Shown here: positions 1 through 53,354 of the stretch, piece after piece | Layout of the letters: the number at the start of each line of letters is the position of its first letter | How positions within the stretch are numbered: position 1 is the first letter of the stretch | NCBI GenBank assembly: GCA_963761035.1 | Contig: CAVXFH010000002.1 | Location: forward strand, 1,215,017 to 1,279,016 | Length of the DNA: 64,000 nucleotides | Direction of reading: 5' to 3' | Source of the DNA: an uncultured Gammaproteobacteria bacterium | GTDB lineage: Bacteria; Pseudomonadota; Gammaproteobacteria; DRLM01 | Made by a program: the position numbers and the translations under genes | Notes under the pieces: generated by a model | What the model was told of the DNA's origin: nothing | Databases searched by the model: none | What the model saw: the letters and a program-made list of their open reading frames with translations, nothing else

Positions 1-1
1 T

Positions 2-334
2 AATAAAAACCAAGCGGTTCAACTTTTTCTTTCGCTTTTGGTTCCACACAATGACTTTTACAACGTCTTTATAAAACTCACCCGTTGCATTCTTGCCCGA
101 AACCTTAAACTCATAAACCGTATTGGTTTCTGTGTCCAATATGTCAATTTTCTGGTCGAGGTCTGGCGCGACCAGAGCCTCGATTTGGTAGCGATCTGGA
201 TCGAGGGTGTGTACGGCAGAGCGCCATGCTTTGGCTATGGCCTGTGCATTACGAGTGTTATCAGAGACATCGTTATTGTCTTGGAGCCTTTGTTTGAAGG
301 CTACCTGGGCTGCTTGGATGATTGGATCGCTCAT
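2..334 (-). CDS. Cassette-encoded hypothetical protein, partial (runs off the window edge); possible PD-(D/E)XK nuclease-like motif
   Basis: My own translation of the minus strand gives MSDPIIQAAQVAFKQRLQDNNDVSDNTRNAQAIAKAWRSAVHTLDPDRYQIEALVAPDLDQKIDILDTETNTVYEFKVSGKNATGEFYKDVVKVIVWNQKRKKK... with no stop before position 1, which is why it is absent from the ORF track. The ATG is at 334-332, 13 bp inside the cassette boundary. The D..(n)..EFK pattern is only a weak hint of a nuclease fold. Confidence 0.45.
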   Translation of the reverse strand, partial: MSDPIIQAAQVAFKQRLQDNNDVSDNTRNAQAIAKAWRSAVHTLDPDRYQIEALVAPDLDQKIDILDTETNTVYEFKVSGKNATGEFYKDVVKVIVWNQKRKKKLNRLVFI

Positions 335-340
335 AGAAAC

Positions 341-417
341 GGCTAACGATCACAATAAGACGCGCCGCGGAGCGGCGTCGCAGTGCGCAAAGCGCACGAC
401 TTGATTGAGTTGTTAGG
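341..417 (-). other. attC recombination site (cassette 4 | cassette 5 boundary)
   Basis: GGCTAAC at 341-347 and GTTAGGT at 411-417 flank an imperfect palindrome with an internal GTGCGCAAAGCGCAC hairpin. Length is 77 bp. Confidence 0.6.
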
Positions 418-437
418 TAAGTCATATGAGATGTTCC

Positions 438-809
438 TCACAACCTGCATATAAGACCTCCAAGGGTGGCGAAGCCCATCGAGACAAGCCCACTGAGCAA
501 TGCTGAAAAAGCAAAGCTTCGGGCCTCTGGCTTGTCTTTCCAATCTGGGTGGTTCCAATTTGTCGCCATCTTAAGGGCTAACCAACCAATCATAGCCGTA
601 CCAGCACCAGTCAGGTTTACACCTACAACAACAGTGAAAAAGCATCTTTCAACTAAACCTGTGACTTCCGGCGGAACGCGCTTTGAGTTGGTTTCACTAA
701 GCGCAGTCTTCTCATCTAGGTCTATGCGAGAACGCAACCAATCTTTGAAATATTGCGTACCGAAGTGCCCTACCAAGAGGGAAAATAATAAACCTAATAT
801 CCACCACAT
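438..809 (-). CDS. Cassette-encoded membrane protein (about 4 predicted TM helices), unknown function
   Basis: 123-aa ORF with hydrophobic segments. ATG at 809 lies 16 bp inside the cassette boundary (ACCTAAC at 819-825). Confidence 0.5.
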   Translation of the reverse strand: MWWILGLLFSLLVGHFGTQYFKDWLRSRIDLDEKTALSETNSKRVPPEVTGLVERCFFTVVVGVNLTGAGTAMIGWLALKMATNWNHPDWKDKPEARSFAFSALLSGLVSMGFATLGGLICRL

Positions 810-818
810 GACTGATCT

Positions 819-914
819 ACCTAACGTTCGACGTAACCGGCCGGCGGAGGCCGAAGGCCGGAGCGAACCTGCAAGCGCAGCTTGCAGGCGGTCCGATTGA
901 CGGAGGGGTTGGGC
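819..914 (-). other. attC recombination site (cassette 3 | cassette 4 boundary)
   Basis: ACCTAAC at 819-825 and GTTGGGC at 908-914. Perfect internal palindrome CCTGCAAGCGCAGCTTGCAGG. Length is 96 bp. Confidence 0.6.
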
Positions 915-933
915 GTTGAGTGGGCCGGGGGAG

Positions 934-1368
934 CTACTTCAGCAGCCATATTAGTGAGCGAGCCAGCAAGGCGCCAAAGGTGAGACCGCCGCTAACGGCG
1001 AACAGATGATGCCACCAACGCGAAGTACGCGCGACGGAAACTCTCGCTTTCATTCGAGCAGCGCGCACTATTTCCACCCTGGTTGTGAAATCTGCAGCGG
1101 TGCGAGTTGCATCTTTGTCGATGGGCGGTAGAAGTACAAGAGACAGCGCGACAAAGGCACCAACTATGACGAGTGCGGCGAGCGCCAAAGTCGGGATGTG
1201 CAAGAGCGGGGAAAGGGAACCCGTGATTGCGCCGGGCTCCATGAACACGGCGGACAGCAGGTATGCGACAACGGCACCAGCCATCGCCGTATCTAGCGGC
1301 GTTTGCGGTGAGCGAAAGAGCTGAACAGTACGCGACACGATCTTACGACGCCCAACGCTCACAATCAC
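934..1368 (-). CDS. Cassette-encoded membrane protein, unknown function. The true start is probably the internal ATG at 1284, because the cassette boundary lies at 1355/1356
   Basis: Hydrophobic ORF. The track start at 1368 is a GTG outside the inferred cassette boundary. Confidence 0.4.
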   Translation of the reverse strand: MIVSVGRRKIVSRTVQLFRSPQTPLDTAMAGAVVAYLLSAVFMEPGAITGSLSPLLHIPTLALAALVIVGAFVALSLVLLPPIDKDATRTAADFTTRVEIVRAARMKARVSVARTSRWWHHLFAVSGGLTFGALLARSLIWLLK

Positions 1369-1432
1369 CGGCTGGTTTGGAGCGGCAGAGCGAAGCGGCG
1401 CCGCGTAATACCAGTCCGGTGGATTGTGTTGT
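1350..1432 (-). other. attC recombination site (cassette 2 | cassette 3 boundary)
   Basis: GCCCAAC at 1350-1356 and GTTAGCC at 1426-1432. Inverted repeats ACAATCACCGGCTGG / CCAGTCCGGTGGATTGT carry single unpaired bases, which resemble the extrahelical bases of attC sites. Confidence 0.5.
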
Positions 1433-1443
1433 TAGCCGTGTTT

Positions 1444-2007
1444 TTAAAACCATGGTTGCGCTTCCAACGCCTTGCGTAGCGAAGTTTCAACAAATGTAGG
1501 CGTGCGCCAAACGTACTCCGCCGCCTTTGCCTTTCCTTCACTGTCGAGGGATTGAATGTGACAAAGCGCGGCCTCGACTGAGAATGGCTTTTTGCATTTA
1601 CTCTTCGTTTGAAAGTTACTTTCCAGATCTGTCCAAATAACAACATCGATCTTTTTCTCTGACGCCCAATCTTGGATCGATTTTAGTACTTCTTCATCCC
1701 GTGCTTGTTTTCGAGAATTGTCGGCGAAGCAGAAACCGACATTTTTCAGTGTGGTTCCTTCCCGGCTTCGAACATCACAGATGGCGTCATCTGGATTATT
1801 GCGTTTGCTAAATGCGTATGCGACTTGACACGGCACTCCATACTTGGAATCCAGAACAAGGGTCAAAGCGGCAAATCTTGTTTGGGACACACGGGAAAAC
1901 TCGATCTTTAAGCTCGGGCCGTCAAACTGCCAATCCTCATGCTGTTCATCAAATTCGGGGCGTTTGTCCCAGAGCAATGACCCCCACCCCAGAATTGCGA
2001 TCTTCAA
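1444..2007 (-). CDS. Cassette-encoded cytoplasmic protein, possibly gamma-glutamyl cyclotransferase/ChaC-like fold
   Basis: 187-aa ORF. N-terminal ILGWGSLLWD resembles the YGSL glycine-rich loop of GGCT/ChaC/AIG2-like proteins. TTG start is preceded by a strong AAGGAG RBS at 7-nt spacing. Fold assignment is tentative. Confidence 0.5.
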   Translation of the reverse strand: MKIAILGWGSLLWDKRPEFDEQHEDWQFDGPSLKIEFSRVSQTRFAALTLVLDSKYGVPCQVAYAFSKRNNPDDAICDVRSREGTTLKNVGFCFADNSRKQARDEEVLKSIQDWASEKKIDVVIWTDLESNFQTKSKCKKPFSVEAALCHIQSLDSEGKAKAAEYVWRTPTFVETSLRKALEAQPWF

Positions 2008-2023
2008 TGGTGACTCCTTATAC

Positions 2024-2083
2024 GGCTAACGATAAAGCTCAGCCGCCGCGCTGTTTGCGGTCGGCTGCAGCGTATGGTTAGGG
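2024..2083 (-). other. attC recombination site (cassette 1 | cassette 2 boundary)
   Basis: GGCTAAC at 2024-2030 and GTTAGGG at 2077-2083, with an imperfect internal palindrome (GCTCAGCCG...CGGCTGCAGC). The stop codon of the 2078..2335 ORF lies inside the right-hand core, as is typical for cassettes. Confidence 0.6.
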
Positions 2084-2335
2084 GCGTCTTCTCTTGCCCC
2101 AACGCCACCCCAGTGGCTCACCCTTGAGCCAAGCAATGGCCGTAACTCCGACACCAAGGGCTAGAAAGTAAACTGTAAAAGCTACTGAATCGTGTCCTGG
2201 CGGAAAGAGGAATATGCCTGCCAGTACTAGCAGCGCAAAGCAAATCATCACAACATAGCCTTGCCAGGTACGAGGCAGTCCCCAACCCCAACCATACCGC
2301 TTAGCTGGAAACCAGTACTTAGGATCCTGAGTCAT
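2078..2335 (-). CDS. First cassette: small 2-TM membrane protein (KYWFPAKRYGWGWG N-terminus), unknown function
   Basis: 85-aa ORF. GAGGTGG RBS. ATG at 2335 lies 30 bp inside the attI-proximal crossover point. Confidence 0.5.
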   Translation of the reverse strand: MTQDPKYWFPAKRYGWGWGLPRTWQGYVVMICFALLVLAGIFLFPPGHDSVAFTVYFLALGVGVTAIAWLKGEPLGWRWGKRRRP

Positions 2336-2359
2336 AAAATTTCCACCTCGAACGAGTGC

Positions 2360-2440
2360 ACCTAACAGTGATTAGACAGCATATGGCTGTGTTTAAACAC
2401 AGACCTTTGCGGTATAGCACTCATTGGTAACCTCCCCACT
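2360..2440 (-). other. attI-like primary recombination site region (core ACCTAAC at 2360-2366)
   Basis: The first GTTRRRY-type core (minus strand GTTAGGT) lies between the first cassette and the intI 5' end. The extent toward intI is approximate. Confidence 0.45.
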
Positions 2441-2443
2441 TCT

Positions 2444-3279
2444 TTGACTTTATTGAGTTATGGTTTATGCTTGTGTTGCATATACCGCATTTCCGCCACC
2501 GCAATGCCAAGGAGGGCAATGATGGCGAAATCACCCTTGCTTGAGCGCCTGCGTGAAGCAATTCGCGTTCGTCACTATAGTATCCGTACGGAACGGAGCT
2601 ACGTCCAGTGGGTTAAACGATTCATCCTGTTTCACGACAAACGGCACCCGGCCGAGATGGGCGCTGTAGAAATCTCAGCCTACCTTACGCACTTGGCCGT
2701 GGCGCGAAAAGTCTCCGCTTCTACCCAAAATCAAGCCCTTAATGCGCTCAACTTCTTCTACCGCAATGTCCTTGAGCGGGATATGGGAAACTTGGAGGGC
2801 GTGGTTATGGCAAAACGTCCTCAGCGCCTGCCGGTGGTTCTGACTCGGCAAGAGGTAGAGTCCGTATTGCGCTACCTAAAGGGCGACAACTGGCTAATGG
2901 CTGCCTTGATGTATGGATCGGGCCTACGGCTCATGGAATGTCTGCGGCTGCGCGTGAAAGATGTGGATTTCGGTTATCAGCAGATTTTGATTCGCGACGG
3001 TAAAGGGCAAAAGGATCGGGTCGTGCCCTTCCCCAAGCGTTTGGCAGAGGCGCTGCGGGGACATTTACAACAGGTGCGGCAGGCTTACAAAAACGCGTGA
3101 ATTGCCACGCGCTGCGCCACAGCTTTGCGACGCATTTGTTGGAGTCAGGTTACGATATTCGCACTGTGCGGGAGCTGCTTGGCCATGCCGATGTGTCGAC
3201 GACCATGATCTACACTCATGTCTTGAACCGCGGCGGGCGCGGGGTGTTCAGCCCGCTTGATCAGCGGCCGGCCGGGTGA
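2444..3279 (+). pseudogene. intI: Integron integrase intI, inactivated by an internal ~225-bp deletion plus frameshift (fragments 2444..3100 and 3097..3279)
   Basis: Fragment 1 (RHYSIRTERSYVQWVKRFILFH...LPVVLTRQEVESVL...GSGLRLMECLRLRVKDVDF...[10 protein letters not shown]...QAYKNA*) aligns from memory to IntI1/VchIntIA residues about 10-200. Fragment 2 ([41 protein letters not shown]...GVFSPLD) aligns to the C-terminal box II/tyrosine region. About 75 aa between them are missing, and the fragments are in different frames. The missing part includes the IntI-specific extra domain. Confidence 0.8.
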
Positions 3280-3302: not shown

Positions 3303-3349
3303 ATCGTTTCTATCCCTCACCCCTACCCCTCTCCCGGCGGGAGAGGGGT
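3303..3349. repeat. REP-like palindromic element (CCCTCTCCC-N-GGGAGAGGG type), copy 1
   Basis: The string CCCTCACCCCTACCCCTCTCCCGGCGGGAGAGGGG is seen directly. Related copies occur at 6858-6990, 18665-18835 and 22962-23115. Confidence 0.6.
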
Positions 3350-6859: not shown

Positions 6860-6990
6860 TTCTTTGCTTCCCTCTCCCTTCGGGATTTATGCCCTGCAGG
6901 GTAGAGGGATCGAGGGTGAGGGCGCATCGAGGAGAACCAAGCCCCCTCACCCCTGCCCCTCTCCCACAGGGAGAGGGGTGAAACCTTCAA
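6858..6990. repeat. REP-like palindromic elements, two tandem units (copy 2)
   Basis: TTCCCTCTCCCTTCGGGATTTATGCCCTGCAGGGTAGAGGGATCGAGGGTGAGG ... CCCCTCACCCCTGCCCCTCTCCCACAGGGAGAGGGG. The first unit is near-identical to a unit at 18700-18760. Confidence 0.65.
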
Positions 6991-18664: not shown

Positions 18665-18835
18665 ATCCCTCATCCCAACCCTTCTCCCGGAGGGAGAAGG
18701 GCTTTTTCTTCCCTCTCCCTCCGGGATTTATGCCCTTCAGGGTAGAGGGATAGAGGGTGAGGCAACTCTACCTAAATCTTTTCACCTACTCTCCCTCTTC
18801 CTTCGGGAGAGGGATGCATGGTTTACCACAAAGCT
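18665..18835. repeat. REP-like palindromic elements, about 3 units (copy 3), in the gcvH-gcvT spacer
   Basis: CCCTCATCCCAACCCTTCTCCCGGAGGGAGAAGGGC ... TTCCCTCTCCCTCCGGGATTTATGCCCTTCAGGGTAGAGGGATAGAGGGTGAGG ... CTCTCCCTCTTCCTTCGGGAGAGGGAT. Confidence 0.65.
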
Positions 18836-20034: not shown

Positions 20035-20245
20035 AAATAAAAAGGGCAACGCCGCGACGCGGCATTGCCCCTCTGTCCGGCTACCTGAGAGCTTTTAGCA
20101 CCTTCGGTGGGCCGCGTGCATAAGCGGCCTCTCTCCAGAGTCAACGTCCCGCTGCGGTCCTTTTGCCTGAGCGATTCCGGGCTGGTTGCGCCTTCGGCGC
20201 CCCGCGGCTGGCGCAGGGTCTCTCCCGCGGGAGACAAGGTTGAAG
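20035..20245 (-). promoter_or_regulatory. Tandem glycine riboswitch with terminator expression platform, leader of the gcvT operon
   Basis: Minus strand carries two aptamer cores, each with a GGAGAG / CTCTGGAGAGA element, CGCCGAAGGCGCAA or CACCGAAGGTGC, and CTCAGGCAAAAGGAC or CTCTCAGGTAGCCGGACAG. These are followed by a GC hairpin (GGGCAATGCCGCGTCGCGGCGTTGCCC) and a T-run immediately upstream of gcvT. Confidence 0.8.
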
Positions 20246-22958: not shown

Positions 22959-24339
22959 GCTTTACCATCTCCCCCTCTCCCTCCGGGAGAGGGCTGAGGT
23001 GAGGGGATTTAGCACGAGGAATCTGCTCGGATGAACGCGTACCGTAGAAAACGGAATTCATTTCCCCATCTCCCTCATCCGGCTCTTCGGGCCACCTTCT
23101 CCCGAATGGGGGAAGGATGAGTGGCAGTCCCCGCGCCAAGCGCGGCAACTTGCCCGCCAATCCCATGGTGTGGCGGGTCAATATATGTTTCAAGGGCGGC
23201 AACAGATCCACGGCCAGCATGCCGGCATTGCGCAACACGCGCACCGGCGACAAGGGGTTGGCGAAGAACCGCGCCAGGCCGTCGGTGAAAGCGATCATCT
23301 TGCTATGATCGCGGCGGCGCCAAGCGGCATAGGTCTGCAACACCTCGAGATCGCCGATGTCCTTGCCGGCGTCGGCGGCATCGCTCAACACCTCGGCGAG
23401 CACCGCCACATCGCGCAGGCCGAGATTGAAACCTTGTCCCGCGACAGGGTGCAAGGTATGGGCGGCGTTTCCGATCAACGCCAAGCGCGGCCTGACGTGT
23501 TCGCGGGCGCGCACCAACTGCAGGGGATAGGCGCGGCGTTTGCCGAGTCGCAGGAAGGTACCCAGGCGGGTACCGAAGCGCGCTTGCAGGGCTTGCAGAA
23601 ACGCCGCCTCATCCAACGCCATCATCTGCTCGGCTTGGTCGCCGCGCACCGTCCACACTACCGAGCAGCGATTATCGCTCATGGGCAACAAGGCCAGGGG
23701 ACCGCTGTCGGTGAAACGTTCGAAGGCGCAATGGCGGTGCGGACGTTGCGGGGTGATATTGGTAATCACCGCGGTCTGGCCATAATCCCAGCGCCGGGTA
23801 TCGATGCCGAACCATTCACGCACTTGCGAGGCGGCGCCGTCCGCCGCCACCACCAAGCGAGTGGTCAAACGGCTCGCGACACCCGCGCAATCCATCGCCA
23901 CCACCCCGTGATCGCCGCCGCCGGACACCTGGGTAACGACGGCGGGACACAGCAAGGTCACAGTGGAAAGCTGCCGCAAACGCGCCGCCAGCGCCGCGCC
24001 CATGGCGCGGCTCACCGCCACGTATCCCAGTGCCGCCACACCTGCGTCGCGGTAATCCAGGCGGGTGAAACCGAAGCGGCCGCGATCGGAAATATGAATG
24101 GATTGAATCGGCGTTGCATCCGATTGCAAGGCCTCCCACAAGCCCATGCCTTCGAAGATACGCCGCGTGCCGTAGGCGAGCGCGATGGCGCGATCGTCGT
24201 AACTGGGCTGGTCGTCGGAGCGAAACGGCACCGCTTCCAGCACCGCGATGCGCAAGGGTGTGGCGCTCAAGGCGATGGCGAGGCTGGCGCCTACCATGCC
24301 GCCGCCCACAATGATTACGTCATAATCCGTATCAGCCAC
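22951..24339 (-). CDS. ubiH: 2-octaprenyl-6-methoxyphenol hydroxylase-like FAD monooxygenase, with a ~55-aa C-terminal extension encoded by a REP-like repeat
   Basis: MADTDYDVIIVGGGMVGASLAIAL. The pepP-ubiH-ubiI order is conserved. The ORF reads through repeat copy 4, giving ...PPFGRRWPEEPDEGDGE...SPLPEGEGEMVKRG. Confidence 0.7.
   Translation of the reverse strand: MADTDYDVIIVGGGMVGASLAIALSATPLRIAVLEAVPFRSDDQPSYDDRAIALAYGTRRIFEGMGLWEALQSDATPIQSIHISDRGRFGFTRLDYRDAGVAALGYVAVSRAMGAALAARLRQLSTVTLLCPAVVTQVSGGGDHGVVAMDCAGVASRLTTRLVVAADGAASQVREWFGIDTRRWDYGQTAVITNITPQRPHRHCAFERFTDSGPLALLPMSDNRCSVVWTVRGDQAEQMMALDEAAFLQALQARFGTRLGTFLRLGKRRAYPLQLVRAREHVRPRLALIGNAAHTLHPVAGQGFNLGLRDVAVLAEVLSDAADAGKDIGDLEVLQTYAAWRRRDHSKMIAFTDGLARFFANPLSPVRVLRNAGMLAVDLLPPLKHILTRHTMGLAGKLPRLARGLPLILPPFGRRWPEEPDEGDGEMNSVFYGTRSSEQIPRAKSPHLSPLPEGEGEMVKRG
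22962..23115. repeat. REP-like palindromic elements (copy 4) at the ubiH/ubiI junction
   Basis: CTCCCCCTCTCCCTCCGGGAGAGGGCTGAGGTGAGGGG ... CCCCATCTCCCTCATCCGGCTCTTCGGGCCACCTTCTCCCGAATGGGGGAAGGATGAG. Confidence 0.6.
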
Positions 24340-27164: not shown

Positions 27165-27365
27165 CTGGCATCCTCTGCGGTTCCCGTTTGTGGGCCAAGT
27201 TACTCCTTGACCCTAATATTTACCCTTCGGGGACGCTACGACGGCGTCGGTGTGCATGTCCGTATCAATCGGAAAGCCTAAAGACGCGGCTAGCATTCCC
27301 ACGTGAACCTTTTGGTTCAAGGGCCGTGGTTCGCGACGGTTCATGCGGAGGATGCCTTGTTCTCT
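27165..27365 (+). ncRNA. ssrS: 6S RNA (SsrS)
   Basis: Position between zapA and the 5-formyl-THF cyclo-ligase gene, as in E. coli and Pseudomonas. The segment GGAAAGCCTAAAGACGCGGCTAGCATTCCCACGTGAACCTTTTGGTTCAAGGGCCGTGGTTCGCGACGGTTCATGCGGAGGATGCC matches E. coli 6S (GAAGCCUUAAAACUGCGACGACACAUUCACCUUGAACCAAGGGUUCAAGGGUUACAGCCUGCGGCGGCAUCUCGGAGA). 5'/3' closing-stem complementarity (GGCATCCTCTGCGG / CCGCGGAGGATGCC). Upstream TTGCGC-N16-TAGAAT promoter. Ends are approximate. Confidence 0.8.
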
Positions 27366-33967: not shown

Positions 33968-36900
33968 CTACAACAGCACCCGCTCGATGCCGCCTTGTTT
34001 GACACGCTCCACGAAGCGTTCCTGCCAACCCGCGCCCAGCCATTTGTTGGCCAGCTCCACCACGATGTAATCGGTGTCGAGGCCGGTTTCGGCGCGATAG
34101 CGGGCCAGGCCCTGCTGACAGGCCGGACAAGAAGTGAGGAGTTTGACGTTGCCGTCTTGAACCTCGCGCACGCCGGTGAGTTGTTCGATGCCTGTCTTGA
34201 GTTCTTCTTCCTTGCGGAAACGCACCTGGCTCGCGATGTCGGGGCGCGCCACGGCGAAGGTGCCGGCCTCGCCGCAGCAGCGGTCCGAGAGCTTCACCTC
34301 GGCGCCGCCCAACAGCTTCGACGCTACGCCTACCGGGTTATGGGTCTTCATAGGCGTGTGGCAGGGATCATGATAGAGGTAGCGCACGCCGGTGACGCCA
34401 TCCAGGCTCACGCCCTTCTCCATCAGGTATTCATGAATATCAAGGAGGCGGCAGCCGGGAAAAATCCGGTCGAATTCGTATTTGAGCAATTGGTCCATGC
34501 AGGTTCCGCAGGACACGATCACTGTCTTGATATCGAGATAGTTGAGGGCGTTGGCGACACGGTGGAACAGTACGCGGTTCTCGGTGGTAATCTTCTGGCC
34601 CTTGGCCGCATCGCCGCTGGAGGTCTGGGGGTAGCCGCAACAAAGATAACCCGGCGGCAGGACGGTTTGCGTGCCGATCTCATACAGCGCGGCCAGGGTG
34701 GCGAGACCGATCTGGCTAAACAGCCGTTCCGAGCCGCAGCCCGGAAAATAAAACACCGCGTCACTATCTTCCGTGACCTTGGCGGAGTCGCGCAACACCG
34801 GAATAACCTTGCTGTCCTCCGCGCCCAACAGCGCGCGCATAGTCTGGGTCGGCAGTTTGTTGGGCAGGGGCCTCTTCATGAATTGGATTACTTGGGTCTT
34901 TACGCTCGCCTTGCCGGTGGTGGCGGCGGGCAACTCCTTATCACCCAGCAGGCGCAGGCGCTTGGCCACGCCGTGAGCGCTGCGCTGCGCGGCGTATCCC
35001 CAGCCGATCAGGGTCTTGCGCATCAGCTTGATGGTGGCGGGATCGGTGACATTCAGGAACGCCATGGAGACCCAGGTTCCCAGATTGGCATGGCGCTGAC
35101 CGCGATCCTTGAGGATCTTGCGCATGCGCACCGACACGTCGCCGAAATCGATGTCCACCGGGCAAGGTGTGAGGCACTTGTGGCAAACGGTGCAATGGTC
35201 GGCCACATCGTTCATCTCATCGAAGTGGCGAATGGAGATACCGCGCCGGGTCTGTTCTTCATAGAGGAAGGCCTCGATCATCAGGCCGGTGGCGAGAATC
35301 TTGTTGCGCGGCGAATAGAGCAGATTGGCGCGGGGGATATGCGTGTTACACGCCGGCTTGCACTTGCCGCAGCGCAGGCAGTGGCGAATATCGTCGTTGA
35401 GGGCGCCCAGTTCGCTCTCCTTCAACAGCAAGGCCTCCTGCTGTACCAGGCGCAGCGAGGGCGTGTAGGCATTGGCCAGATCGGCGCCCGCCAACAGCTT
35501 GCCGCGATTGAAGCGGCCCTCCGGATCCACCTTGCGCTTGTAGTCGGCGAAGGCGGCGACACTCTCCGGTGCGAGATATTGAAACTTGGTGATGCCGATG
35601 CCGTGCTCGCCGGAGATGACGCCGTCCAGCGCCTTGGCCAAGGCCATCACCCGGTCCACCACCCGTTCCGCCTCCTGCAGCATTTGATAGTCGTTGGAGT
35701 TGACCGGGATGTTGGTGTGTACGTTGCCGTCGCCGGCGTGCATGTGCAGGGCGACAAACAGGCGGCTGGAGCGGATGGCGGCATGAATTGCGTCGAGACG
35801 CGCCCGCACACCCGCGAAGGCCTGACCGGTGAAGATCTCCTTGAGAGGATGATCGACTTCGCGGCGATAAGACACCCGTAAGGCGCGGCGCAGCAACAAT
35901 GACAGCAGGGTCTCGCCAGGCAGCACGCTATTGCGCGGTTCCTCGCCCAATAAGGCCTGATGTTGCGCGGCGGGTTCCTCCATGCGCGACAGGTACACCG
36001 ACCATCGCCCGCGCACCGCGGAGATATGCTCGCGCGCCGTCTGCCGCTTAGCGGCGATGATGGCATTGTCTTCGACGCTGGCCTCGTAATCCGCCACTTG
36101 CCGCACCTCGGGCAATTCTCCGCATAGATATTCCTCTACCGCATCCAACAGGCGCAGCTTATTGGCGATGGATTGTTCGATATTGATGCGCTCGATGCCC
36201 TCGCTGTAATCGGCGAGCTTGTCCAGGGGGATTACCACGTCTTCATTGATCTTGAAGGCGTTGGTGTGGGCGGCGATCGCGGCGGTGCGGGCGCGGTCCA
36301 CCCAGAAACGGCGTCGCGCCTCAGGACTCACGGCGATGAATCCCTCCGCCTCGCGGGCGTTAGCCAGACGCACTACGGTAGAGGAGGCCTCGGCCACCGC
36401 GTGGTCGTCGTCACCGGAGACGTCGATCAACAATACCATTTTGGGGCGGTCGCGGCGCGGCGCCTTGGTGCTGTACTTCACCGCGCGCAGATAGCGCTCG
36501 TCGAGGTGCTCCATACCTGACAGTACGGCGTCGGGGTTGGCGTCGAGATAATCCTTGATCTCCACGATGGCGGATACGGCGCGGCGCAAATCGTTGCCGA
36601 AGAATTCCAAACACAACGTACGGGTGTATCTGGGCATGCGGTGCAACACGAACACCGCCGAGGTGATCAGTCCGTCACAACCCTCTTTTTGCACACCGGG
36701 CAGACCGCCCAGGAATTTATCGGTGACATCTTTGCCCAGACCCGCCTTGCGGAACAAGCGGCCCGGCAGGCGCAGAATCTCCGGTTCGCCTATAGGAGTA
36801 CTGCCGTCGGGACGAAAGCGGCTCAGTCGAAATTCCACAATCTCCTGTTCGTGAATCTTGCCGAGGTTGTGATTGAGGCGCTCCACCTCCAACCACTCGG

Positions 36901-37891
36901 CGTCCGGCGTTACCATGCGCCATGAGGCGAGATTATCCACGGCGGTGCCCCATAACACCGCCTTCTTTCCGCCGGCGTTCATGGCGATGTTGCCGCCGAT
37001 AGTGGAGGCATCCATGGAAGTGGGATCGACGGCGAATACCAAATGATTCGCTTCCGCCGCTTCCGCCACCCGCTTGGTCACCACGCCGCACTCGGCGCGC
37101 ACCGTGGGAACCGCTTCGCTCAAACCGGGCAGCAGGCGATGCTCCACCTTACTCAGACCTTCCAGCTTCTCGGTATTGATCACCGCGGTATCGGCGTGTA
37201 AGGGTACCGCGCTGCCGGTGTACCCGGTACCGCCGCCGCGGGGAATGATGGTCAAACCCAGTTCGATGCAGGCCGCCACCAGCGGCGCGACTTCTCCTTC
37301 CGCGTCGGGATTGAGCACCACGAAGGGGAACTCCACACGCCAATCGGTGGCGTCGGTAACATGGGAGACGCGGGCAAACCCGTCGAAACGGATGTTGTCG
37401 CGCCGCGTCGCCTTGGCGAAACGGCGCAGCGCCCTCTGCCGCAGACTGCGCTGTTCCACGAACCAGCCCTCGAACTCGCGCACCGCCTCCCGGGCACGGT
37501 TGGTCAATTGCAGGGCAACGGGGTTATTTTCGGCGCGGCCGACGATCTGATCGAGGCGCTGATAGAGCGTGGCGGACAAGGATGTAAGCCGCCGGGCATT
37601 TTCCAGCAGGTCATCTTGAATGTACGGATTGCGGGTCACCACCCACATGTCGCCCAGGATCTCGAACAGCATCTGCGCCGAACGACCGGTACGGCGGCTG
37701 TCGCGCAGCTGGTTTAGCGCCGTCCACATGGGTTCCCCAAGAAAACGAATGACGATTTCACGATCGGAGAACGACGTGTAGTTGTAGGGTATCTCGCGAA
37801 TGCGCGGTTGACTGCTGGCTACCATGGGCGTGCGTCGTGGAGCGGGGAAACCTTGTTGGCATATAAAAAAGCCGCGGCTAAATTGTAACAC
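33968..37891 (-). CDS. Large FAD-binding oxidoreductase (GlcD-like) fused to a GlcF-like CCG iron-sulfur domain, with DUF3683-like N-terminus (YdiJ-like, 1307 aa)
   Basis: N-terminal ...[16 protein letters not shown]... Central FAD-binding PCMH domain. C-terminal cysteine clusters ([29 protein letters not shown]). The real start may be the ATG at 37825. Confidence 0.75.
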
Positions 37892-49745: not shown

Positions 49746-52700
49746 TCAATGCATGAAGTCCATATTTAGCAGCCGGTTGATGGAATCCGGCCTGTCGATC
49801 ATATAACCCTGAACATAATCGACGCCTATCTCGCGCAACAGCTCGAGAACCGCGGCGTTTTCAACGAACTCCGCAACTACTTTCTTTTTCATAAAATGCG
49901 CTATCTCCGTGATCGATTTAACCACGGCATAGTCACTGGAGCCGGCGACCATATTCTTCACGAATGCGCCGTCAATTTTTACCGAATCAACGGGGAGGTT
50001 TTTTAGATAGCCGTAGCTTGACATGCCGCTGCCGAAATCATCCAATGCGAAACGACACCCTTCTTCCTTAATCCTTTCGATAAATAAGATGGCATCGGAA
50101 AGACTAGCGATACCGACCGTCTCTGTCACCTCGAAGCAAATCTTATCACGAGGCACGCTCACGGCTTTCAGTTTCTCCAATAAATAATCCAAGAAACCCT
50201 CTTCATTAATGGACTGGCCAGACAAGTTGATAGAGAAACCGTCTATCTTATCCATGACTTCGGGATTGCTTTCGATCCACGATAAGGTTCCTATAATCAC
50301 GTATCGATCCACCGCTGACATCCGGCGATACCATTCCGCGGCCTTGATGAATTCGCTCGGCGAACCGATTTCGCCATGCTCGTCCCTGACACCCATCAAT
50401 ATCTCGAAATGAGGCCGTTCCTCGCTGTCGCTTGCCAGCGGTTGAATGCGCTGGCACCTGATCTCCAGCGCGCCTTCTTCCAACATCGTATCAATCTTGC
50501 CGATCCACTTCATGACCTCCGCCTGGTGCGCGACGCGCGAGTGGCCGGCATGAAAGACCTGCAATCTGTTTCCGCCATTATCCTTGGCGATGCTGCAACT
50601 CGACTCGGCGGCCAGCAACAACTCATCGACATCGCCGCTACGGGAGCTAATTGGCACCAATCCCATGCTCAATGTGGCCGAATAGACATCACCCTTCCAT
50701 TCCATTTTGTACCCGGCGACGCTCTCGATTTTCTGTTCTGCGACAGCAAGGGCGTCGTCCAATGAGCACTCCTTAAGGAGTATCCCGAACTGATCGCCGC
50801 CAAGACGCGCGATTTCCGCATTGCCGGGCAAGTTGTCGTGAAGGATTTTCACCGAGTTTTGCAATAACTGATCACCGCCCGCATAGCCACAACTGTTATT
50901 GATGGCGCTGAATTTATCTATATCGATGAACAACAGGACATGCCTTGCGTCATCTCGCTTGGCGCTCGCCACGGCTTCTCGCATCAGTCTGTCAAATTCA
51001 CGACGATTGATCAGCCCCGTCACGCTGTCATGAGTGCTTTCGTGTAAGACCTGCTGATAGAGATCCTGCATAATAACGTATTGGGCTCTATCCATGGCGG
51101 GATCGGCGACATTGTCCTGGGGCTTCATGATTCTAAGATGCATCATAACCGCCACGTCGGCGGCCTTTAATACTGTTTCCTTTATTCCCTTCAAATTCAC
51201 GAATACATAGATCGATTTTTGATCATCCACCCAACCGACGCGTAACCTTTGAGGGCTACCCCCTGGAAAGGTTTGAAGCATGCTATCGCCTACACGCAAT
51301 CTACGCACATGCATCAACCATTTATGCTTTTCGGCTGTGGAGATACTGGTATCACTCACTACGTTATCTTCAAATATTTCCGGCTCCGGAGGAGACGCTT
51401 CGCATTCCTTGACTAAATCTCTTACGTTGTCCTCATATGCCTTGTTTTGAACCTTGATAAGCTTAGTCAGTTTATTGAGTATTTCCTCAAAGATTTTCGC
51501 GCCATCGGTGCTTTCCTTGGCAACCTTTTCCAATAGTTCCTCGATGGCTGCGCTAATGGCGCTTTGCTTCGAATTGGCCTTACCCTGATGATAGAATTCA
51601 AGTTGAGCGATATTGTTGACTACCTGGCGAGCCACATGGGAGTGATCAAAGAACAAGGTGGGGTCCAATAACGCCATCTTGATAACGGGTAGCTCGAGTT
51701 GCCTGAGCCACGGCTTGACGCTTTCAGCCACTAAGGGATCGGTCTGCATGGCACCTAGTAGGTCGCCGGTGACCTCCAGTACGTTACTGTCGCGGGGATT
51801 AAGTTGCTTCACGTTGCCTTCCCCGGTTCGTGACAGCAAGACCGCGGCAATGCGCGACTTAAGGTTATGAGGCTGATCTTCGCTATACTGAAAGCTTTGA
51901 GGAGTTGTCTGCAAGTCGGCAATAGCAGCGACTAAATCGGAAGTTGCATAACACTTACTGATATCTGTGATTTCCGGCGTAATCTCGGTTAGTTCCGTCA
52001 TGCCGGGTGATAATTCGCGCTGTCCCGGCAACAAATCCGCCCTCTGCCTAGCTAGCCCGTGCCGCAATGCGCGCAAGTCCTGCACGACTTGGAACAGATT
52101 CTGGGGCGCTGCCTGTCCGCCGGTAGAAGCTGCTGCCGTAGGAGAAATGAAAGAGGGCGCGGGCATTTCGCTCTGCGGGTTCACAGCAACTCCGGACTTC
52201 ACAGCTACGGTTGGCGGCTCGGTACTTTGCTTCGATAATGCCGACCGGTGAAGCATTCTGTATTTGAGGTCGGGTAATACGCTATATTCGATCAGGATGC
52301 CGTTGAGTTTTGCATAAAGATCCGACGACAAGTTGATTAGAATATCCTTGAACACAGCATAACAAGCAGTATTGACAGCTTCTTTGAACTTGAAGTAACT
52401 CAGTCCGGCTTGAAATGACTCTGCGAAAAGAGCCGGCCCATAGGGATTATTGGCGTGACTGATCTGCGCATTGAATAATACCGACAACCGCTCTTCGAGC
52501 ATGGCCAGCGTCTCTTTGTATTTTTCCTCAACCTTGCCGGTAACATCTGAAATTGCCAACCACGTCCCTAAATCCTCATCACCGATAAGCGACAAGTTTT
52601 CAAAAGACAGATTCGCGATACGCTGCCCCTCTGCTTCTTTAGTACCGTACGTCTTTTCATGGGCCGCCTGTAATCGCTCTTTAAAACTCGAGTGCACTAT

Positions 52701-53354
52701 ATCGAGAAACTTATTCTGATTTGCTTTGATATCTCCAGCTGCAATAAAATAGACATTCTGTTCCTCGATACCGACAGAATTACTGGAAAGATCAAATAAG
52801 CGTTGATAGAGCCGGTCACCTAGTTGCTCCAATAAGGAGTCCATTGTCGCTAGAACGAGACGACCACAATCGGCTAATATGCCACTGCATTGCAGATCGA
52901 TCGAGTTTCCGCGATTACTGCCTATCTCCAGTTCATGGGGCCGTGGATTTCCCGAGGAAAATTGCAGCGCAAACTGCTGCATGGTCCGCAGTGCATCGCG
53001 TTCCGGGTTGACAAAAGCAAGACCAACGCCGTTTTGCATGGCGCGGACGATGCGCGCTTGAAACTGTAGAAGCTTATCGCCGTCCGGCATGGGGACGATA
53101 GTTTGTACCACAAACCTGTTTTTTACTTCGAAGAAGTGCAATTGCTCTTGCGCCGCTTGCGGGGAATAATGCAGCAGCATCCCCCCCATGCAAAAATCCT
53201 TCATCTCGCATTGAATTTTGCGCCCATCGGGAGCAATGAGTGTCGCACCCAACACCACAGGATAACGCACGAAGGCGCGCCGACCTTTTTCTGAAGGATC
53301 AACTTTTGGCGGGTTGGATTCCGCAATCTGCTTATTTAGCTTTGGTGCTTGCAT
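49746..53354 (-). CDS. PilZ - DUF1631 - GGDEF (degenerate GGDQF) - EAL multidomain c-di-GMP signalling protein, 1202 aa, in a low-GC island
   Basis: N-terminal RRAFVRYPV...DFCMGGMLL (PilZ-like). Long DUF1631-like middle. GGDEF domain with RLGGDQFGILL. C-terminal EAL domain (EILMGVRDEHGEI..., DDFGSGMSSYGYLKNLPVDSVKIDGAFV). GC is markedly lower than in neighbouring genes. Confidence 0.75.
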   Translation of the reverse strand: MQAPKLNKQIAESNPPKVDPSEKGRRAFVRYPVVLGATLIAPDGRKIQCEMKDFCMGGMLLHYSPQAAQEQLHFFEVKNRFVVQTIVPMPDGDKLLQFQARIVRAMQNGVGLAFVNPERDALRTMQQFALQFSSGNPRPHELEIGSNRGNSIDLQCSGILADCGRLVLATMDSLLEQLGDRLYQRLFDLSSNSVGIEEQNVYFIAAGDIKANQNKFLDIVHSSFKERLQAAHEKTYGTKEAEGQRIANLSFENLSLIGDEDLGTWLAISDVTGKVEEKYKETLAMLEERLSVLFNAQISHANNPYGPALFAESFQAGLSYFKFKEAVNTACYAVFKDILINLSSDLYAKLNGILIEYSVLPDLKYRMLHRSALSKQSTEPPTVAVKSGVAVNPQSEMPAPSFISPTAAASTGGQAAPQNLFQVVQDLRALRHGLARQRADLLPGQRELSPGMTELTEITPEITDISKCYATSDLVAAIADLQTTPQSFQYSEDQPHNLKSRIAAVLLSRTGEGNVKQLNPRDSNVLEVTGDLLGAMQTDPLVAESVKPWLRQLELPVIKMALLDPTLFFDHSHVARQVVNNIAQLEFYHQGKANSKQSAISAAIEELLEKVAKESTDGAKIFEEILNKLTKLIKVQNKAYEDNVRDLVKECEASPPEPEIFEDNVVSDTSISTAEKHKWLMHVRRLRVGDSMLQTFPGGSPQRLRVGWVDDQKSIYVFVNLKGIKETVLKAADVAVMMHLRIMKPQDNVADPAMDRAQYVIMQDLYQQVLHESTHDSVTGLINRREFDRLMREAVASAKRDDARHVLLFIDIDKFSAINNSCGYAGGDQLLQNSVKILHDNLPGNAEIARLGGDQFGILLKECSLDDALAVAEQKIESVAGYKMEWKGDVYSATLSMGLVPISSRSGDVDELLLAAESSCSIAKDNGGNRLQVFHAGHSRVAHQAEVMKWIGKIDTMLEEGALEIRCQRIQPLASDSEERPHFEILMGVRDEHGEIGSPSEFIKAAEWYRRMSAVDRYVIIGTLSWIESNPEVMDKIDGFSINLSGQSINEEGFLDYLLEKLKAVSVPRDKICFEVTETVGIASLSDAILFIERIKEEGCRFALDDFGSGMSSYGYLKNLPVDSVKIDGAFVKNMVAGSSDYAVVKSITEIAHFMKKKVVAEFVENAAVLELLREIGVDYVQGYMIDRPDSINRLLNMDFMH

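Follow-up and report, generated by a model that had tools for sequence, protein, structure and literature searches.

A cassette array beside an apparently disabled integron integrase gene on the chromosome of an uncultured gammaproteobacterium

Introduction

Sedentary chromosomal integrons are exemplified by the super-integrons of Vibrio and by Xanthomonas integrons that have an inactivated intI; the criteria for this kind include one shared locus across related genomes and a large array of homogeneous attC sites (more than 19). A cluster of attC sites lacking an integrase (CALIN) is defined as two or more attC sites that lie more than 4 kb from any functional integron integrase, and 15 of the 279 CALIN of one survey had an intI pseudogene nearby (Cury et al. 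2016, PMC4889954). Here we describe a locus close to this last type, located at one end of a stretch of 64,000 nucleotides (“the window”) of contig CAVXFH010000002.1 from an uncultured Gammaproteobacteria bacterium. Positions 1–3279 of the window represent, with a probability that we put at about 0.9, the integrase-proximal end of a chromosomal integron, the intI gene of which was recently disabled by one deletion.

The layout consists of five minus-strand open reading frames (ORFs) with imperfect palindromes between them, a 150-bp spacer, and a plus-strand integrase-like gene that is split over two reading frames (Table 1). The palindromes are four canonical attC sites, which mark off five promoterless cassettes, all in one orientation. 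The first cassette adjoins the attI crossover, with the divergent intI past a 150-bp attI/promoter region. The G+C content of this part of the window is 46–60%, compared with 61–69% in the following 3.2–7 kb of the chromosome and 58.7% over the rest of the window. A preliminary description, made from the sequence alone, had already recognised the five consecutive ORFs, an attI-like core and an outward-facing intI remnant, and had proposed an integron in decay or a CALIN-like state. All of this agrees with our analysis, as four attC sites are present and the only integrase gene nearby is a pseudogene. The same description correctly had the array continuing past the left edge, where cassette 5 runs off with 111 of its 148 aa inside the window. 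Its word “small” goes further than the sequence allows, as the array leaves the window. The left-edge sequence had no match in an exact-match metagenome scan.

The locus has several properties in common with a CALIN that is accompanied by an intI pseudogene, namely at least two good attC sites in one orientation, promoterless cassettes, and a recognisable broken intI within 4 kb. It differs in that the attI junction, the 5′ end of intI and a likely cassette promoter (Pc) are in place and that there is one lesion, a picture of an integron soon after the loss of its integrase and not of an array left stranded. Like sedentary chromosomal integrons it is chromosomal, is adjacent to yyaL in at least one relative, and has its attC bottom strands on the inferred leading-strand template; unlike them, it has heterogeneous attC sites instead of a homogeneous species-specific repeat family, and one relative is without intI by yyaL. 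The gene order, the divergent orientation, the attC geometry and the position of the candidate Pc are those of a class 1 mobile integron, and the aadA attC site fits the same covariance model, but the locus shows no 3′ conserved segment, Tn402 module or resistance cassette, and its integrase is apparently dead.

With four attC sites and a pseudogene as the nearest integrase, the element would, judging by the IntegronFinder definitions alone, count as a CALIN with an adjacent intI pseudogene. The intact integrase of a “complete integron” is missing, because positions 186–260 of the integron integrase model TIGR02249 are absent and the frame is shifted.

Table 1. Features of the integron end and its chromosomal border (window coordinates)
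Feature	Position	Strand	Remarks
Cassette 5 ORF	1–334	-	first 111 of 148 codons; continues beyond left edge
attC of cassette 4	341–418	-	R2 40.7 bits, E 4.9e-8; 78 nt, branched variable tip; fold z -2.8
Cassette 4 ORF	438–809	-	123 aa, hydrophobic, probably membrane protein
attC of cassette 3	819–914	-	R2 57.5 bits, E 2.5e-12; 96 nt; fold z -2.8 (+ strand), -3.6 (- strand)
Cassette 3 ORF	934–1338	-	134 aa (GTG 1338) or 116 aa (ATG 1284), start ambiguous; hydrophobic, probably membrane protein
attC of cassette 2	1350–1437	-	R2 58.6 bits, E 1.2e-12; 88 nt; fold z -3.3 (+ strand), -4.2 (- strand)
Cassette 2 ORF	1444–2007	-	187 aa, TTG start; conserved uncharacterised family, predicted ChaC/GGCT (gamma-glutamylcyclotransferase) fold
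attC of cassette 1	2024–2083	-	R2 55.3 bits, E 8.5e-12; 60 nt; fold z -3.9 (+ strand)
Cassette 1 ORF	2078–2335	-	85 aa, hydrophobic, probably membrane protein; GAGGTGG ribosome-binding site upstream
attI x attC crossover core	2360–2366	-	ACCTAAC, top strand G|TTAGGT; identity breakpoint vs other arrays
attI and intI promoter region	2367–2518		palindrome and candidate promoter
intI 5′ fragment	2519–3100	+	193 codons, then stop at 3098–3100 just past deletion junction
Candidate Pc (cassette promoter)	2579–2607	-	TGGACG-17-GATACT in intI coding sequence; 8/12 consensus positions
intI 3′ fragment	3079–3279	+	other reading frame; carries box II (HxxR, H, Y); junction ~3079, ambiguous zone 3055–3091
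Host REP-like G+C-rich hairpin	3314–3348	+	just past intI stop codon; marks chromosomal side of element

The integrase pseudogene

The residues encoded at 2519–3097 match TIGR02249 over positions 1–185 of 315 with 252 bits (XerC 90, XerD 78), and those encoded at 3100–3276 match positions 261–314 with 105 bits (XerC 74, XerD 71). The integron integrase model thus exceeds the Xer models by 162 and 30 bits, with both fragments under its 265-bit cut-off. The closest proteins are intact integron integrases of 320–327 aa from metagenomes, which are 77–81% identical over the 5′ fragment; P0001 and P0008 show 77–78% identity to this fragment over residues 1–191. The best IntI match among the GTDB representatives is 65%, and protein identity to the class 1 integrases of plasmids is about 49–50%.

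In tblastn searches, residues 1–191 of the relatives are found at 2519–3091 in one frame, while residues 251/259–321 of P0001/P0008 are found in a second frame at 3055/3079–3267. About 60–75 codons are gone from intI, together with a shift of the frame. In the alignment, the missing block reads ...DLDEGYG.VYLPYALARKYPNA.REWGWQYVFPA...HHYHETAMQKA... and spans the ...LPYALARKYPNA..WGWQYVFPA... region; it includes the additional domain that is specific to IntI. This extra domain contacts the extrahelical bases of folded attC sites. There is no further stop codon or frameshift in the rest of intI, and the box I arginine, the lysine and the HxxR, histidine and tyrosine of the active site are still encoded. 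Given the two clean frames and the otherwise intact gene, one out-of-frame deletion at or near 3079 explains all of the observed differences. No other integrase-like sequence was detected by tblastn within the 64-kb window.

The integrase had been described beforehand as decayed; that it is disabled is borne out by these data, but decay overstates the damage, as there is a single out-of-frame deletion in a gene that is otherwise clean. Its assignment to IntI rather than to XerC/XerD holds on the basis of the model scores and because a relative encodes part of the missing segment beside yyaL. This relative is represented by L090, from an organism with a yyaL that is 87% identical at the nucleotide level; there, the 3′ end of an intI gene lies immediately upstream of yyaL, in the same orientation, and still encodes residues 240–258, which are lost in the window. 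A relative thus has the platform beside the same yyaL neighbour as in the window, which makes the deletion specific to the lineage studied here. In a second relative, L089, the sequence diverges 185 bp upstream of yyaL, which indicates that the junction upstream of this gene is variable.

When the two relatives are compared with each other (L089 1–162 versus L090 1–677), they are 100% identical over 198 bp spanning the yyaL start (185 bp upstream and the first 13 bp of the gene), beyond which they diverge completely, with intI in L090 and an unrelated small gene in L089. The hairpin that follows the intI stop codon belongs to a REP-like 35-nt family with the pattern CCCTCACCCC.ACCCCTCTCCC...GGGAGAGGGG. 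The same 35-mer occurs at 3314–3348, 6944–6978 and 18667–18701, a further member of this intergenic family lies at about 22973–23010, and similar copies are found between intI and yyaL in L090.

The attC sites

As Rfam holds no attC family (a gathering scan of the window gave a 6S RNA and a tandem glycine riboswitch only), covariance models were purpose-built. Model R1, built from the four sites of the window, found 134 attC sites in 80 loci that had been fetched from other genomes via their IntI genes, and these foreign sites lie in arrays beside the IntI genes. Model R2 was built only from the 134 foreign sites and was run on the window with filters off; as its seeding goes back to a model of the window sites, the test is to this extent not fully independent. 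R2 matched the minus strand at all four places where attC sites had been proposed, with 40.7–58.6 bits, and the proposed coordinates were right overall, except that the third site ends at 1437, 5 nt beyond the earlier end at 1432. No other match with E < 0.1 was found in 64 kb, the next best having 15 bits (E 0.17). That one is a weak attC-like palindrome, GCCCAAC...GTTGGGC, at 34823–34865 within a 1307-aa ORF (33968–37891), and is most likely due to chance. In a positive control with attC sites of class 1 plasmid integrons, R2 gave 62 bits for aadA, 52 for blaVIM-1, 48 for aac(6')-Ib and 39 for dfrA14.

All four sites, as single-stranded DNA, fold better than shuffled sequence (z -2.4 to -4.2), and the R/L layout was recovered along with the extrahelical bases; the latter had been reported for two sites and are seen in all four. 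When aligned at both ends and read on the top strand of the array, which is the minus strand of the window, the sites have a common geometry of a 7-nt R'', a 5-nt spacer, 3 bp, an extrahelical base and 6 bp, closed at the 3′ end by a 6-nt spacer and R'. On the bottom strand (the plus strand of the window), three sites have G as the first extrahelical base and one site has C. A second extrahelical base, T on the bottom strand, is present in sites B, C and D and is followed by the variable tip, while site A is irregular at this point. In the common structure 87.5% of the paired cells are complementary, against 15–43% when the partner columns are slid, and covariation, with both sides changed, occurs in 6 of 11 L-helix pairs.

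Two of the R' cores are GTTAGCC, which is one position off the GTTRRRY consensus; the R' core of the cassette 4 site, read on the array top strand, has this sequence and corresponds to plus-strand positions 341–347. Because several cores differ by one base, a strict RYYYAAC...GTTRRRY expression recovers just one of the four sites and misses the other three, so that a covariance model was required. The set is heterogeneous in length (60, 78, 88 and 96 nt) and has a mean column identity of 64%. The attC site of cassette 1, which other arrays share at 99% identity, overlaps the stop codon of the ORF in this cassette. All 8-kb bins of the window have a negative GC skew, from which the bottom strands of the attC sites would lie on the leading-strand template, the arrangement found in 25 of 30 sedentary integrons (PMC5371416).

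A different organisation was seen in four loci from Acidobacteriota and Thermoanaerobaculia (L014, L017, L018 and L028), where intI is followed downstream, on its own strand, by long arrays of near-identical 76-nt attC sites, an inverted-integrase, super-integron-like arrangement.

The attI site and exchange of cassettes between arrays

Identity of 98.5–99.4% to other arrays begins at the core at 2360–2366, whereas upstream of it identity drops to 70% (L094/L095) or is absent (L098). This breakpoint, together with the homologous platform, identifies the attI-like core noticed earlier as a real crossover point.

Cassette 1 (2366..2030) recurs in L098 with 99.4% identity; for L096–L098, TA-rich arrays in which this cassette is internal, the BLAST identity is 99.4–99.7% over 336 bp. 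In L094 and L095 it is 98.5–98.8% identical and is the first cassette of a homologous platform, the attI/intI part of which is only 70–77% identical to that of the window and has an intI cut to 66 aa. In all compared arrays the identity of cassette 1 starts and stops at the G|TT crossovers. A near-identical cassette next to so divergent a platform points to a recent capture of cassette 1. For cassette 2, homology to a copy in Sulfuriferula (79% nucleotide identity) sets in exactly at GTTAGCC, and of attC this copy retains just the R''-L'' half. From these breakpoints and identities we conclude that these are true mobile cassettes and that this attI has captured a cassette recently. An independent 993-bp assembly, L001 (Logan ERR11571143), is 100% identical to 1374–2366 and ends exactly at the crossover base 2366; this end could reflect a branch of the assembly graph where recombination takes place, or no more than a break in the contig.

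The homologous platform of L094 (2966–7232) and L095 lies beside a peptidase M16 gene, and its array also holds cassettes for a BrnA antitoxin, Hypoth_Ymh and an AAA_15/AAA_21 ATPase.

The region between the first cassette and intI contains a candidate intI promoter, TTGACT-16-TATGCT, at 2444–2471 on the plus strand, and a perfect 16-bp palindrome, CTGTGTTTAAACACAG, at 2387–2402, which resembles a LexA box and fits the LexA consensus. It is the sole CTGT-N8-ACAG of the window, and at least one such motif occurs in 32% of shuffles. The motif was found upstream of intI in none of 67 related loci, and the homologous platform L094 keeps only the inner 12 bp, GTGTTTAAACAC, for which reasons an assignment to the SOS response as a LexA box is weak. 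The candidate Pc is the only minus-strand promoter-like site near attI and covers the same aligned codons as the class 1 promoter PcW (TGGACA-17-TAAGCT). Both of its hexamers are kept in L094/L095, with a different spacer, but coding constraint could also explain this conservation.

Status of the array

The integrase encoded at this locus is probably non-functional, in which case the array by itself would be unable to excise, shuffle or capture cassettes. It would then be a fixed, operon-like block, probably transcribed from the weak Pc-like promoter in the 5′ end of intI, and its mobilisation would require an integrase acting in trans. With a single visible lesion and a recently captured first cassette, intI would have been inactivated late in the history of the platform.

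Several points weigh against this interpretation. The loss of integrase function is read from sequence only, and a second intI could lie outside the window, which covers 64 kb of a 3.02-Mb genome. The endpoints of the deletion are ambiguous within 3055–3091, and the sequences of Pc and of the intI promoter fit the consensus weakly (8–9 of 12 positions). The second relative, L089, is without intI within 185 bp of yyaL, and conservation of the locus is not uniform.

We consider it unlikely that the array is not frozen at all, and that cassettes are still being excised and inserted here, the orphan attI included, by an integrase from another part of the genome or from a visiting element. Such a process would account for a cassette 98.5–99.4% identical to those of other arrays on a platform 70–77% identical to its nearest homologue, and for the presence of the same first cassette on the L094/L095 platform, where intI is also dead (66 aa). 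The attC sites of the window score like functional class 1 sites, and about half of the CALIN occur in genomes with an IntI encoded elsewhere (PMC4889954). The same data, however, fit a capture by the resident IntI shortly before its deletion, and the window contains no second integrase-like sequence. Moreover, IntI enzymes are far more selective for their own attI than for attC, which counts against servicing in trans.

There is very little to suggest that the deletion arose in assembly or consensus calling, or that it is a minority allele in an organism with an intact integrase and an active integron. It is known from assembled sequence alone, as the independent contig L001 stops short of intI, but a loss of about 180–225 bp is not typical of base-calling error, both flanks of the junction are clean in their own frames, and the gene call deposited with the source contig likewise gives the truncated 192-aa product (P0003).

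That the locus is no integron but the remnant of a Xer- or phage-type recombinase beside ordinary intergenic palindromes or terminators, an idea that might draw on the Phage_integrase domain common to tyrosine recombinases and on the unrelated REP-like hairpins of the genome, is refuted by the wide margin of TIGR02249, by the fit of the palindromes to an attC model (R2) that was derived from other genomes and recognises class 1 cassettes, and by the coincidence of cassette boundaries with identity breakpoints in other arrays.

We therefore retain the reading of an integron end with a recently deleted intI segment. A cassette array beside an intI pseudogene is a state that has already been described in other bacteria, and the integron itself is real but ordinary.

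Cassettes and their products

The distance between the core at the cassette start and the start codon is 24 nt for cassette 1, 16 nt for cassette 2, 11 nt (GTG 1338) or 65 nt (ATG 1284) for cassette 3, and 9 and 6 nt for cassettes 4 and 5. A further GTG at 1368 was rejected as the start of cassette 3 because it lies in attC and outside the cassette. No cassette protein had a significant match in Pfam, NCBIfam, PADLOC or PHROGs, and profile searches against PDB sequences found nothing for them. A protein identical to the cassette 1 product, P0137, its cluster mate at ≥90%, is encoded on 22 contigs. The family of the cassette 4 protein has 611 matches at E≤1e-3 among cluster representatives, and in only 2 of 19 loci encoding its relatives does an attC site lie directly downstream, which shows that this family is only sometimes borne on cassettes.

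The families of cassettes 2 and 5 have 944 and 442 homologues, respectively, and both travel as cassettes. The putative activity of the cassette 2 product as a GGCT enzyme goes with the predicted fold, there being no match to a family hidden Markov model. The cassette 5 product is predicted to be a BamHI-like nuclease of the PD-(D/E)xK superfamily, in agreement with its D...(D/E)xK motif. No conserved partner gene accompanies this nuclease, and its neighbours in Propionivibrio and Geothrix are unrelated. A cassette 2 homologue in Sulfuriferula (L082, 5976–6607) and a cassette 5 homologue in Propionivibrio (L085, 5447–5480) are located outside any integron and keep the R' core and/or just the R''-L'' half of attC. 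By their sequence these look like cassettes that were inserted or fossilised at non-att sites.

Other features of the window

A full-length Rfam match with 86 bits marks a 6S/SsrS RNA gene at 27169–27355 on the plus strand. The tandem glycine riboswitch at 20063–20237 on the minus strand, with aptamers of 64 and 46 bits, lies upstream of the gene for the glycine-cleavage T protein (19957–18866). Between 48001 and 56000 the G+C content falls to 52.6%, compared with about 58–62% in the neighbouring bins; this region holds a 1202-aa ORF (49746–53354) and may be another acquired region.

Discussion

The current understanding of integrons is unchanged by this integron or by its two conserved cassette families. 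Those of cassettes 2 and 5 are widespread, are without a Pfam domain or a match to a family model, and carry only the name “hypothetical protein” in their sources. It would be bold to go further, and we mention only as a doubtful idea that the orphan attI platform may go on capturing cassettes, even with its own integrase dead, via an integrase acting in trans and, separately, that the 148-aa BamHI-like nuclease and the 187-aa protein with the predicted ChaC fold could be new single-gene toxin or defence cassettes.

The value of the locus lies in its being a clean case of an integron shortly after integrase loss, with attI, a likely Pc, good attC sites and a recently captured first cassette all present. 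Such a case can help to date the stranding of cassette arrays and to test their mobilisation in trans.

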